A stretch of 64,000 nt of DNA from Pseudomonadota bacterium (GTDB lineage Bacteria; Pseudomonadota; Alphaproteobacteria; Rhodobacterales; Rhodobacteraceae): contig JBCBIS010000001.1 of NCBI GenBank assembly GCA_038524325.1, forward strand, positions 3,150 through 67,149, read 5' to 3'. Below the pieces are notes generated by a model, which was not told where the DNA came from, did not search any database, and saw only the letters and a list, made by a program, of their open reading frames with translations. Both the position numbers and the translations under genes were made by a program. Below, one piece after another: positions 8,274 through 11,240 of this stretch. Every line of letters begins with the position of its first letter. Positions within the stretch are counted from its first letter, which is position 1.

Positions 8274-9326
8274 ATGGGCGCTGAGATACACGGACAGTCT
8301 TGCAGAGCAACCGGCACGGGCCGGGTTGAGGGGTCGGAGATCGTAGGCTCCGCCCCAGGGTTTCGCCGCGCCCTCTCGGCCGCACGCAAGGCGGCGAGCT
8401 GTTCCGCACCGGTTGTTGTCGGCGGCGAGACCGGCACGGGGAAAGAGCTGATCGCCCGCCTGATCCACCGGCTCAGCGACCGGGCGCGGCGCAGTTTCGT
8501 GCCGGTCAATTGCGGCTGCCTGCCCAGCGATCTGGTCGAGAACGAACTGTTTGGGCACGAGGCAGGCGCGTTCACCGGGGCGACCTCGGCCGCCACCGGG
8601 TTGGTGCACCTGGCCGATCGCGGCACCCTCTTTCTAGATGAAATCGATGCGCTGGTCCCGCGGGCGCAGGTGACCTTGCTGCGGTTCTTGCAGCAGGGCG
8701 AGGTGCGGCCGGTGGGGGGCGGTCCGACCTCTCGGGTCGATTGCCGCATCCTCGTCGCCTCCAACCGCCCATTGTTCGATCTGGTCGAGCAGGGGCTGTT
8801 CCGCGAGGATCTCTATTTTCGGCTGAACGTGTTGGAGGTGCATCTGCCGCCGCTGCGCGAGCGGCGCGAGGACCTCCCCGCCCTGGCGCGCCATTTCCTG
8901 ACGAAGTTCGGCAACGCCTATCGCCGTCGGGGACTGCGCCTCGAGGCCGAAGCGCTCGCCTGGATCGCGGCACAGGATTGGCCGGGGAATGTCCGCGAGC
9001 TGGAAAACCTGCTGCACCGCGCCGTCCTGATGGCGGAGGGGACCGAGATCACCCGCGATCTCCTCGCCCCCGACCCCTGCCATGTGCAGCACCTCGGCAA
9101 GACGCCCTGTCGGGCCCGGCCCTCCTCCGACCCGATCGAGCCCTTTGCCGACGCGAAGGCCAAGGCGATCGCAGCGTGGGAGCGGGGCTATCTGACCCGG
9201 CTGATGGACGTGGCCGGCGGCAATGTCACCGCCGCTGCCGCCCGCGCCGGCAAAGAGCGTCGGGCGCTGGGCAAGCTGCTTAAGAAACACGGGCTAGAGA
9301 CCGGCAGCTCAGGGCCCGGGGCTTGA
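8274..9326 (+). CDS. Sigma54-dependent transcriptional activator (bacterial enhancer-binding protein, bEBP) without an N-terminal sensory domain
   Basis: Walker A GETGTGKE, sigma54-contact loop GAFTGA, Walker B FLDEIDAL, and a C-terminal Fis-type HTH GNVTAAAARAGKERRALGKLLKKHGL. The AAA+ core begins about residue 23. An in-frame TGA at 8205-8207 limits any N-terminal extension to 22 codons. Confidence 0.9.
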   Translation: MGAEIHGQSCRATGTGRVEGSEIVGSAPGFRRALSAARKAASCSAPVVVGGETGTGKELIARLIHRLSDRARRSFVPVNCGCLPSDLVENELFGHEAGAFTGATSAATGLVHLADRGTLFLDEIDALVPRAQVTLLRFLQQGEVRPVGGGPTSRVDCRILVASNRPLFDLVEQGLFREDLYFRLNVLEVHLPPLRERREDLPALARHFLTKFGNAYRRRGLRLEAEALAWIAAQDWPGNVRELENLLHRAVLMAEGTEITRDLLAPDPCHVQHLGKTPCRARPSSDPIEPFADAKAKAIAAWERGYLTRLMDVAGGNVTAAAARAGKERRALGKLLKKHGLETGSSGPGA

Positions 9327-11240
9327 TTTGGTCGGGCATTTGAGCGTGTAAGCCGCACAGCCGAGCTCGTCATCCGCCTCGATCTCCTCCGAGTGGCCAA
9401 TCGGCGTCCCTGGGCAATCCACACTGACGAAGCTGTATTCGTGCAGCTTTTGCAGATATTTGCAGAAATCGGCTTTGAACTGCTTGATCTCCGCATCCAC
9501 CGTGGCTTGCGAGATCGGCTTTGCCTTGGTTCCCTTCTGGCTGAAATCGGGCAGCGGGTTGTTGCGCAGATAGCGCATGACCGCGAGGCCATGCTCGCCC
9601 TCGTGATGCCCGAGCGTGAGAGAACGCGAGATGGATTTGGCCCCCGCCTTGTCCTCCGCACTGGTGCCGCGACCATAGGCGGAACTGTCCGCCGCCTTCG
9701 CCTTCTTGCCGTAATGGGTGCGCAGCTTGAGCGAATAGCTGACCCGCAGATTGTACCGCTCGTCACCCGAGCAGCCCCGTTTGGCACAGCTATACTTGAT
9801 ATCCGGCTGGAGCAGATGCCGCGTGCTCGCGCCGGTCGCGGAGACCTTCTTGTCCTTGGTCTTGTCTTTGGCAATGCTCACCGAGACGCCTGCGACCTCG
9901 CCCTTATAACTGCCGCCCTTCTTGCGGAACCCCTCGGGGATCGGGGTCGAATATCCCGTCTTGACGCTGTGCTGGTGAGCCCAGGCCCAGGGGGGGATCC
10001 GTCCGCTGTTCGCGGCATAAAACTCCACCCCATCGACCCCATTGACCAAGGCATGGGCCGAGATCAGCGCCCCGACCGCCCCGTCATAGGCATCACGCAG
10101 GCGCTTTTTCAGCTTTTTGTCTTTCTTGAAATGGGTGTTCAGAACCCCTTCCTGGGCGGTGATCACCGTCAGCCATTTGTCCAGCAGGTCGCTAACCTGT
10201 TTGGCGGAGAGGCCCGGCTTGGCCTTCGCCGGTGCGGCTGTCTTTGCCGTCTTAGCCGTGGTGTCGGTGGCCTGGGCGACTGCGCGGGTCACGGTGGCCG
10301 AGGCCGCTGCGATGGGGCTGATCTCGGCCAGCACCTCCGAGATGATCTGGTCCCAGGGGATCGCAAGGTTGGTCAGCACCATCTCGGTGAATTTGTCGCC
10401 GGCTTTCTCGAGGGCGTCAATCGCCTCTTCGACGCCCTGCTTCAGCGCCTTCTTGTCCGATTTCAGCATCGGCGCGGCAGGGGCGGCCTGCGGCGCGTGG
10501 TTTTGCTGCACAACATGGGTCAATTCATGGGCCAGCAGATGCCGTCCCTTTTCGCTCGCCGGGTCGAAGCGGTCCTTGTTGAAGACGATATGCTTGCCAT
10601 AGGTGAAGGCCTGCGCATGGACGGCGCGGGCCCGGTCGGCGGCCTCGGCCCCGTCATGGATTCGGACTTTCGAGAAATCGGCGCCCATGCGCGGCTCGAA
10701 ATAGGCGCGGAGCGGGGCCGGCAGCGGTCTGCCGCCCGACAGCCCGCCGGTCGCGCGCCCGACGCCGCCTGTGCTTGCGGAGCCAGGGCTCTCGCGCCGT
10801 TGCAAGATGCCGGGGTCTGCCTTTGTTTGGAGCGCTTCCTCCTCCTCTTCCATCATCTGGAGGTGTTCTTCTTCGTCCTCCATCATCTGGAGCGGCTCTT
10901 CCTCCTCCATGGTCTGGATCGGTCCTTCTTCCTCCGACATCGTTTGGAGGGCGTGCTCCTCGCCCGGCATCCGTTGGAGGGTCGCGCCCGGCGCCGTGGC
11001 GGGTTCGGGCATCGAGAGGACGTGGCGCGCCACCGCCTCGGCCTCGCGCTCGGCCGGGTGGTCCGGTCCGGCGATGCCGCCCTGACAGCGCGCGCAGCCG
11101 CCGCCGCAGGCGCATCCCGATTTGGGTTGCAGCGGCGCCGGCCCCTGGGTCCGCGCTGGCGGTTTGGCGCGGATCGGCAGCGGTCTGGCGCTCCGCGCGC
11201 GGGCGCCCAAAGGCATCCTTGCGGCCATCATCGCTCCCAT
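9309..11240 (-). CDS. DUF4157-domain protein (HExxH) with a 385-aa C-terminal region of unknown family; candidate eCIS effector
   Basis: RIHDGAEAADRARAVHAQAFTYGKHIVFNKDRF...LLAHELTHVVQQ matches the DUF4157 core. N-terminal CACGGGCARC and LQxx repeats. GGGAGGGG ribosome-binding site before the ATG at 11240. Last gene of the operon. Confidence 0.8.
   Translation of the reverse strand: MGAMMAARMPLGARARSARPLPIRAKPPARTQGPAPLQPKSGCACGGGCARCQGGIAGPDHPAEREAEAVARHVLSMPEPATAPGATLQRMPGEEHALQTMSEEEGPIQTMEEEEPLQMMEDEEEHLQMMEEEEEALQTKADPGILQRRESPGSASTGGVGRATGGLSGGRPLPAPLRAYFEPRMGADFSKVRIHDGAEAADRARAVHAQAFTYGKHIVFNKDRFDPASEKGRHLLAHELTHVVQQNHAPQAAPAAPMLKSDKKALKQGVEEAIDALEKAGDKFTEMVLTNLAIPWDQIISEVLAEISPIAAASATVTRAVAQATDTTAKTAKTAAPAKAKPGLSAKQVSDLLDKWLTVITAQEGVLNTHFKKDKKLKKRLRDAYDGAVGALISAHALVNGVDGVEFYAANSGRIPPWAWAHQHSVKTGYSTPIPEGFRKKGGSYKGEVAGVSVSIAKDKTKDKKVSATGASTRHLLQPDIKYSCAKRGCSGDERYNLRVSYSLKLRTHYGKKAKAADSSAYGRGTSAEDKAGAKSISRSLTLGHHEGEHGLAVMRYLRNNPLPDFSQKGTKAKPISQATVDAEIKQFKADFCKYLQKLHEYSFVSVDCPGTPIGHSEEIEADDELGCAAYTLKCPTKSSPGP

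Follow-up and report, generated by a model that had tools for sequence, protein, structure and literature searches.

A DUF4157 cargo candidate at the end of an extracellular contractile injection system operon carries a C-terminal module from a large unnamed family with an invariant HExxH motif

The last gene of an extracellular contractile injection system (eCIS) operon on contig JBCBIS010000001.1 of a Rhodobacteraceae genome (assembly GCA_038524325.1) encodes a DUF4157 protein whose C-terminal region belongs to a large unnamed protein family. The stretch analysed here, 64,000 nucleotides of that contig, is referred to as the window throughout. The gene product is probably a cargo (effector) of the upstream eCIS, and its C-terminal HExxH module is probably a zinc-dependent hydrolase, most plausibly a peptidase. 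That eCISs carry DUF4157 cargo is well known, and an unannotated C-terminus is the rule among DUF4157 proteins. The new element is that one such C-terminus can be delimited as a large family, which shares an invariant HExxH motif, uses two delivery routes and has a confidently predicted fold without a relative in PDB or BFVD.

A sequence-only reading of the window had described positions 9312–10469 as a single domain of 385 residues that matched no family it recognised. The span corresponds exactly to residues 258–643, the C-terminal 386 aa of a 643-aa open reading frame (ORF). A Pfam search of this region at E≤10 gave one match, ROH1-like, at E=0.11 and under its cut-off. NCBIfam gave no match, and the best hit among PDB sequences had E=1.8. 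For these three databases the claim of an unrecognised family stands, but the region is not an orphan: at least 331 clusters are related to it. A word-indexed search returned only four relatives, all of them DUF4157 proteins with 37–41% identity. When 1.84 billion cluster representatives were searched exhaustively with phmmer, 331 had E≤1e-3, of which 116 also passed E≤1e-10 and 12 passed E≤1e-30; family counts refer to clusters at 50% identity. By sequence comparison, the region is therefore part of a large family, which spreads over about ten phyla.

Homology in the phmmer search spans residues ~90–360 of the C-terminal region (protein aa ~347–617), and many smaller proteins have only a shorter sub-core in common with the window protein (residues ~170–357 of the region). 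The first ~87 residues (aa 258–344) are specific to the lineage. A short-core profile brought in 204 further proteins, mostly ‘hypothetical proteins’ of 200–370 aa without a Pfam domain. No signal peptide was found in the standalone short members, whose polar N-termini often contain [IV]QR motifs. Searching a 150-sequence family profile against PDB chains gave nothing under E=0.39, and Pfam searches with 28 individual members gave no match at E≤5, no peptidase and no Tox-MPTase model. Some members bear the JGI label ‘predicted secreted Zn-dependent protease’; Pfam gives no matching family in those proteins, and we did not adopt the label. A phage origin was also rejected, with zero relatives among 2.9 million IMG/VR viral contigs.

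Conservation was counted in a local-pair MAFFT alignment of 143 family representatives, in which H546, E547 and H550 are each present in 141/141 aligned sequences; among full sequences, 149 of 153 contain a motif of the HE[G/S/A]xH type. Near-invariance extends to D459 (141/143), D530 (140/141) and G523 (141/141), and T473, Y522 and P564 are kept in 138, 135 and 140 representatives, respectively. The His/Glu cluster LGHHEGEHG (aa 543–551), which the sequence-only reading had proposed as a possible metal-binding site, thus turns out to hold a canonical HExxH that is invariant in the family; metal binding itself is predicted from the motif. Position 608 is Asp in 122 and His in 15 of the 139 representatives aligned there. 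As an alternation confined to Asp and His is what would be expected of a metal ligand, D608 is a candidate for the third ligand. C609 is Cys in 119/138 representatives, and the clade of the window protein carries an extra Cys pair, C593/C628, besides C609/C635. The Cys-containing strings noted earlier, CAKRGC (aa 485–490) and CPGTP...GCAAYTLKC (aa 609–635), are both present. The family signature can be written as ...NSGRIPxWAW...ISTP...PD...IQTxY...SxYGRGTTxED...S/TLGFHEGxHG...NPxPxF...Y...[T/V][D/H]CVG...C.

The same protein has an HExxH in its DUF4157 domain (HELTH) and another in the C-terminal module. We considered an internal duplication of DUF4157 as the source of the C-terminal family and rejected it. 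Aligning the two with hhalign gave a probability of 1.4% over only 15 columns round the motif, which provides no evidence of common origin.

Contrary to the single domain first described, the C-terminal region resolves into a linker with an insert (aa 258–344), a helical hairpin (aa 345–410) and the conserved core (aa 411–637). The core is marked, in order, by NSGRIPxWAW, STP, PD, IQT.Y, S.YGRGTT.ED, the HExxH helix, NPxPxF, a long helix, [DH]CxG and a C-terminal Cys. The hairpin is found in ‘long’ family members and is lacking in ‘short’ ones; short-type members such as the Chitinophaga protein P0172 begin at the ISTP motif. A first AlphaFold2 run on aa 258–643 with five sequences reached a predicted local distance difference test (pLDDT) score of 55.7, with values <50 for linker residues 307–343, and was discarded. 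With a 36-sequence alignment and aa 345–643 as the query, the model reached a pLDDT of 94.5 and a predicted template modelling score (pTM) of 0.91. It begins with the long helical hairpin, followed by five β-strands including two long hairpins. Two short helices round the YGRGTT.ED loop lead to helix H199–216, which opens with the HExxH. A 30-residue helix (H234–264) then ends at D608 and is followed by a small β-hairpin bracketed by C609/C635. The β-part consists of long hairpins without an obvious backing helix.

Structural comparison with Foldseek, as suggested by the sequence-only reading, matched no known domain. Against PDB, the best match had E=2.1 with template modelling (TM) scores ≤0.14, and no peptidase was among 41 weak matches; against BFVD, the best match had E=0.27 and a TM score of 0.19. 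Foldseek may overlook very divergent small cores. Within PDB and BFVD, the model supports the view that the C-terminal module lacks a known structural relative, and ‘new effector fold’ is a fair description of the predicted structure. The sequence-only reading had named the gene the best candidate in the window for such a fold, and it is the only cargo-type gene there.

Use of the module in other genomes was surveyed by scanning one genome per GTDB species (185,579) with a single HExxH-helix peptide pattern, independent of DUF4157. The scan gave 51 confirmed loci in Bacteroidota, Cyanobacteria, Myxococcota, Desulfuromonadales, Acidobacteriota, Chloroflexota, Pseudomonadota, Actinomycetota, Planctomycetota and Chlamydiota. 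Hidden Markov models (HMMs) built in this analysis were then run on six-frame ORFs from the loci. Core and DUF4157 share one ORF at 40/51 loci, and DUF4157 lies in the same ORF as the core or ≤6 kb away at 47/51. Several eCIS structural genes are also present at no fewer than 8 of the 51 loci. P0161, a standalone member of 385 aa without DUF4157, has a DUF6519 fibre gene ahead of it and is followed by three DUF4157 genes. The P0172 protein is identical in Chitinophaga sp. S165 and a metagenome-assembled genome (MAG) labelled Flavihumibacter; its gene lies among an AAA+ gene, a contractile injection system (CIS) tape-measure gene and two genes for DUF4157 proteins of ~1300 aa. In P0254 (locus L056, 1942–2877), one of the proteins brought in by the short-core profile, an N-terminal WXG100 domain (E=1.6e-10) is fused to the HExxH core; its neighbours are an FHA-domain gene, a gene for a WXG100-Peptidase_C2 protein and an ORF of 158 aa. 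This locus looks like a type VII secretion system (T7SS) toxin cassette bearing the HExxH module. The core is thus joined to alternative delivery domains (DUF4157, WXG100) or stands alone, a pattern that characterises portable effector or toxin heads.

In the window, the cargo gene is the 3′-most gene of a complete eCIS operon, identified by Pfam, that lies upstream on the same (−) strand, and it is followed by a convergent gene (Table 1). This agrees with the terminal cargo position originally ascribed to it. Likewise, the DUF4157 domain with its HELTH motif, placed earlier at about 10503–10727, is matched by Pfam at 10494–10727. An identical database protein (P0001) is annotated as ‘MAG: DUF4157 domain-containing protein [Pseudomonadota bacterium]’. 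No other ORF in the 64-kb window matches the DUF4157 HMM or the C-terminal core HMM.

The Lys content of the window protein is unusual within its family. The C-terminal region contains 44 Lys in 386 aa (11.4%), whereas Lys makes up 1.5% of the 6872 aa counted in neighbouring proteins (binomial P = 7e-25). This agrees with the unusual Lys-richness reported before; 34 of the 44 residues fall in aa 345–643 (9312–10208, − strand). The strings that had drawn attention to it, KKDKKLKKRL (aa 372–381), KDKTKDKK (aa 458–465) and GKKAKAAD (aa 511–518), were all located. The trait is specific to the window lineage and was rejected as a family trait: the closest relatives have 0.9–1.0% Lys and a C-terminal isoelectric point (pI) near 5, whereas that of the window protein is 9.3. 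Its Lys residues stand mainly where relatives have Ala, Thr, Ser, Asp, Pro or Gly, and rarely Arg. Compensation for an acidic N-terminus does not explain them, as N- and C-terminal charges are uncorrelated over 63 fusions (rho = −0.08, p = 0.54). One guess is that the surface of the region is adapted to a target.

The DNA of the region was also correctly noted as less GC-rich than its flanks, at 61.5% compared with 68–70% in flanking genes. GC at third codon positions (GC3) is ~80%, near the 82–87% of the neighbours, and the dip tracks Lys content. It is therefore attributable mostly to AAG/AAA Lys codons and amino-acid make-up, and on the same grounds foreign DNA or horizontal transfer was rejected as its cause.

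In the explanation that we favour, aa 1–171 would serve as a loading signal read by the AAA+ ATPase of the operon, as suggested by work on AlgoCIS and PVC, and the ATPase would thread the cargo into the tube lumen. DUF4157 (aa 172–249) would have an accessory role, and aa 345–637 would be the effector module, set behind a lineage-specific linker. The HExxH, the near-invariant D459 and D530, and D/H608 would together make a zinc site catalysing hydrolysis. Sheath contraction would expel the cargo, after which the module would hydrolyse its substrate, most plausibly peptide bonds, inside the target cell or in its envelope.

Several observations weigh against this explanation. The module shows no sequence, profile or fold likeness to any known metallopeptidase (Pfam, PDB and Foldseek against PDB). 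The catalytic assignment is drawn from a five-residue motif and its conservation, and the metal-site geometry of H546, H550 and D608 in the model is putative. N-terminal disorder was judged from composition. The Thalassomonas copy of the module stands by itself, with no eCIS gene within 10 kb. There is no cognate immunity gene: the gene downstream in the window is a sigma-54 activator, and the search for an adjacent immunity gene in relatives that the sequence-only reading had proposed found no conserved small ORF after those examined. Finally, Cgo1, a cargo of AlgoCIS that resembles the window protein in layout, is toxic on expression in E. coli independently of both of its HExxH motifs (PMC8894135).

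This last result would suit an effector in which the HExxH is not the toxic principle. Such a protein would act by binding or by membrane perturbation, helped by its basic, Lys-rich surface, and the motif would be structural or regulatory. The net charge of +15 in the window core, compared with −7 to −12 for the whole C-terminal regions of the closest relatives, suggests selection on surface electrostatics and points the same way. However, C-terminal pI ranges from 4.7 to 10.5 over the family, so charge is not its conserved feature, whereas the invariance of H, E and H in all 141 aligned representatives at 25–40% identity indicates strong selection on the motif. The membership of Cgo1 in the family is, moreover, unproven. 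We consider an effector independent of its HExxH unlikely. A similarly low probability is given to a hydrolase of the cell envelope, such as a peptidoglycan peptidase, acting in an oxidising compartment rather than as an intracellular toxin; this could be the periplasm or wall of the target, or the wall of the producer during lytic particle release. The conserved C609/C635 and the C593/C628 of the window clade are compatible with disulfides, although these Cys could equally be metal ligands or unpaired. Activity exerted in an oxidising compartment, or directed at non-self targets, would be consistent with the conserved Cys pair and the missing immunity gene. Toxins exported for use between bacteria typically have fusions of the WXG100/T7SS kind, and the DUF4157 cargo BDI_2459 is toxic only when directed to the periplasm (PMC12210884). 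Against an envelope enzyme, there is no likeness to peptidoglycan hydrolase families known to Pfam and no signal peptide. It would also be a sub-case of the hydrolase explanation, from which it differs in substrate and site of action.

Still less probable is a protein that is no toxin and serves the particle itself, whether as an accessory or processing protease (trimming, for example, cargo or the N-terminal sequences used in loading) or as a structural plug of the lumen. The role of DUF4157 is unsettled, with maturation and chaperone functions proposed (PMC8213781, PMC11297309), and the gene is the sole cargo-like gene of its operon, both of which would accommodate this idea. Yet the core is found by itself as well as with DUF4157 or WXG100, and often in arrays with other DUF4157 genes, as interchangeable effector heads would be. 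One motif pattern recovered it from 51 of 185,579 species genomes, whereas a single survey lists eCIS loci in 1,249 genomes (PMC8213781), and it looks like a patchy accessory module rather than a fixed component. The hydrolase explanation may, on the other hand, be taken further. The module could found a new metallohydrolase fold unlike the known zincins, present in at least ten phyla, that serves as an interchangeable warhead for two unrelated machines, eCIS (through DUF4157) and T7SS (through WXG100), and acts on a substrate novel among injected toxins. We regard this extension as possible, though doubtful.

The N-terminal region of the cargo protein (aa 1–171) is acidic and of low complexity (A 16%, P 10%, E 10.5%, G 10%). 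It is presumably disordered, to judge from its composition and acidic repeats, and is proposed to be the loading sequence by analogy with the N-terminal domains of AlgoCIS Cgo1 and Cgo2. The Chitinophaga relative P0172 has repeats of the form KKEEEKPVQKK, analogous to the EEExxLQ[TM]M repeats of the window protein, and a pattern (acidic run)-x-[LV]Q may be common to these loading regions. A CxCGGxCxxC motif in the same region is invariant in the 5 closest homologues and present in 12/174 family proteins, 3 of the 12 without DUF4157. It may form a small knuckle that binds metal inside the loading region.

The remaining genes of the operon and its flanks are listed in Table 1. The three large genes between spike and fibre gene probably encode baseplate components, because their homologues recur beside spike and hub genes in related loci. 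A DUF6519 gene lies directly upstream of the cargo gene here, in the related locus L001 and, by phmmer, in L052; in this eCIS lineage, the DUF6519/β-helix protein probably acts as tail fibre or receptor-binding protein. The 72-bp gap between it and the cargo gene contains no sigma-70-like promoter. The sigma-54 activator gene is convergent with the cargo gene and overlaps its stop codon by 18 bp, and the homologue P0004 is followed on its own contig by the same convergent activator. A sigma-54 promoter core ahead of the sheath gene is the sole exact match to TGGCAC-N5-TTGC in the 64 kb (0.07 expected), and the operon may be under sigma-54 control. A survey of eCISs names the regulators GerE, BTAD and RfaH and does not list a sigma-54 type (PMC8213781). 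Divergent from the operon, a 1202-aa ORF at 34912–38520 (+) contains G8, CEMIP β-helix and NosD-type domains.

Table 1. Features of the cargo gene, the eCIS operon and its flanks (window positions).
Feature	Position	Strand	Description
Sigma-54 activator	8274..9326	+	PF00158 (AAA+ sigma-54 interaction), E=1.9e-58, plus weak HTH_8
Whole cargo gene	9309..11240	−	ORF, 643 aa; DUF4157 protein, last gene of eCIS operon
Conserved core module, aa 411–637	9330..10010	−	Core HMM match E=1.7e-58
D608-C609	9414..9419	−	D608 candidate third metal ligand; C609 + C635 = conserved Cys pair
Second HExxH, HEGEH, aa 546–550	9591..9605	−	Predicted catalytic metal site; starts a predicted helix
YGRGTSAED signature loop, aa 522–530	9651..9677	−	Near-invariant Y522, G523, G525, T526, D530
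Helical-hairpin subdomain, aa 345–410	10011..10208	−	Predicted helices H2-26, H31-56, H60-66, pLDDT >90
Lineage-specific linker, aa 258–344	10209..10469	−	Holds ~55-aa Ala/Thr/Lys-rich insert, missing from closest homologues (alignment gaps)
DUF4157 / eCIS_core (PF13699), aa 172–249	10494..10727	−	Pfam E=1.1e-31, 109.2 bits, cut-off 22
First HExxH, HELTH, aa 238–242	10515–10529	−	Inside DUF4157
N-terminal region, aa 1–171	10728..11240	−	Ala/Pro/Glu/Gly-rich by composition; proposed loading sequence
Five acidic repeats EEExxLQ[TM]M, aa 94–139	10824..10961	−	In N-terminal region
CxCGGxCxxC motif (CACGGGCARC, aa 43–52)	11085..11114	−	Within N-terminal region
Fibre-like protein, 1537 aa	11313–15926	−	N-terminal DUF6519, plus β-helix, CarboxypepD_reg
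Three large baseplate-size genes, 770, 1004, 865 aa	15945–23583	−	No Pfam match at E≤1e-3
Spike	24163–24879	−	Pfam
GPD hub	24879–25979	−	Pfam
CIS tube-like protein	26272–26949	−	Pfam
AAA+ ATPase	27233–29278	−	Pfam
Pvc16-type cap	29275–30417	−	Pfam
Two genes, 318 and 334 aa	30421–32369	−	No Pfam match at E≤1e-3
gp19-type tube	32108–32758	−	Pfam
Sheath	32623–34509	−	Pfam
Sigma-54 promoter core TGGCAC-N5-TTGC	34571..34585	−	~61 bp upstream of sheath start, right orientation

The family offers a candidate active site (H546, E547, H550, D608, D530 and D459) and would justify a new Pfam/InterPro entry; the view of how eCISs operate is unchanged by it. DUF4157 is an established marker of eCIS toxins (PMC8213781), and among 1130 predicted DUF4157 toxins, 983 carry no further annotated domain (PMC11297309). 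The window protein resembles the DUF4157-marked eCIS-associated toxins (EATs; Geller 2021, Danov 2024) in its N-terminal DUF4157, its 3′-terminal position and its variable C-terminal effector region. Many EATs, like the window gene, lack an obvious immunity gene. The C-terminal module is unlike the annotated EAT toxin domains (ADP-ribosyltransferase, deaminase, nuclease, transglutaminase and others) and falls in the unannotated majority.

When comparing the module with zincins, including Tox-MPTase1–5, the model shows a similar arrangement, in which the HExxH would open an α-helix after β-strands. D/H608, downstream of the motif, could correspond to a third ligand. Tox-MPTase-type domains are likewise C-terminal toxin heads on varied delivery modules. 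However, the window module has no Pfam peptidase, PDB-profile or Foldseek match. With the C-terminal domains of polymorphic toxins it shares the varied N-terminal trafficking domains, and it differs from them in the absence of an immunity gene.

The closest parallel among characterised proteins is Cgo1 of Algoriphagus machipongonensis (ALPR1_12695, UniProt A3HTB0, 498 aa). In AlgoCIS Cgo1 and Cgo2, a disordered N-terminal domain is followed by DUF4157 and then by a C-terminal domain that varies; both proteins fill the tube lumen (PMC8894135). Loading requires the N-terminal domain of the cargo, while DUF4157 is dispensable and an AAA+ ATPase is implicated (bioRxiv 10.64898/2026.05.27.728243). 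The three-part layout of Cgo1 is like that of the window protein; both have a second HExxH in the C-terminal domain, a predicted metalloprotease in Cgo1, and both are encoded in eCIS clusters. The short-type Bacteroidota members P0172 and P0126 (~500 aa) match Cgo1 in size, and P0172 is followed by a ~1300-aa DUF4157 gene as cgo1 is by cgo2. The window protein has a helical hairpin and a Lys-rich insert beyond Cgo1, and its gene comes after a fibre gene, whereas cgo1 adjoins the tape-measure gene. Algoriphagus is not among the loci from the GTDB scan with one peptide pattern. By layout and description, Cgo1 may be a characterised relative of the C-terminal family, in which case the present finding may have been partly anticipated by it. 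Should Cgo1 prove to be a member, particle loading would already have been demonstrated for one protein of the family, which would make the family well suited as a model of eCIS effector biology and for payload engineering.

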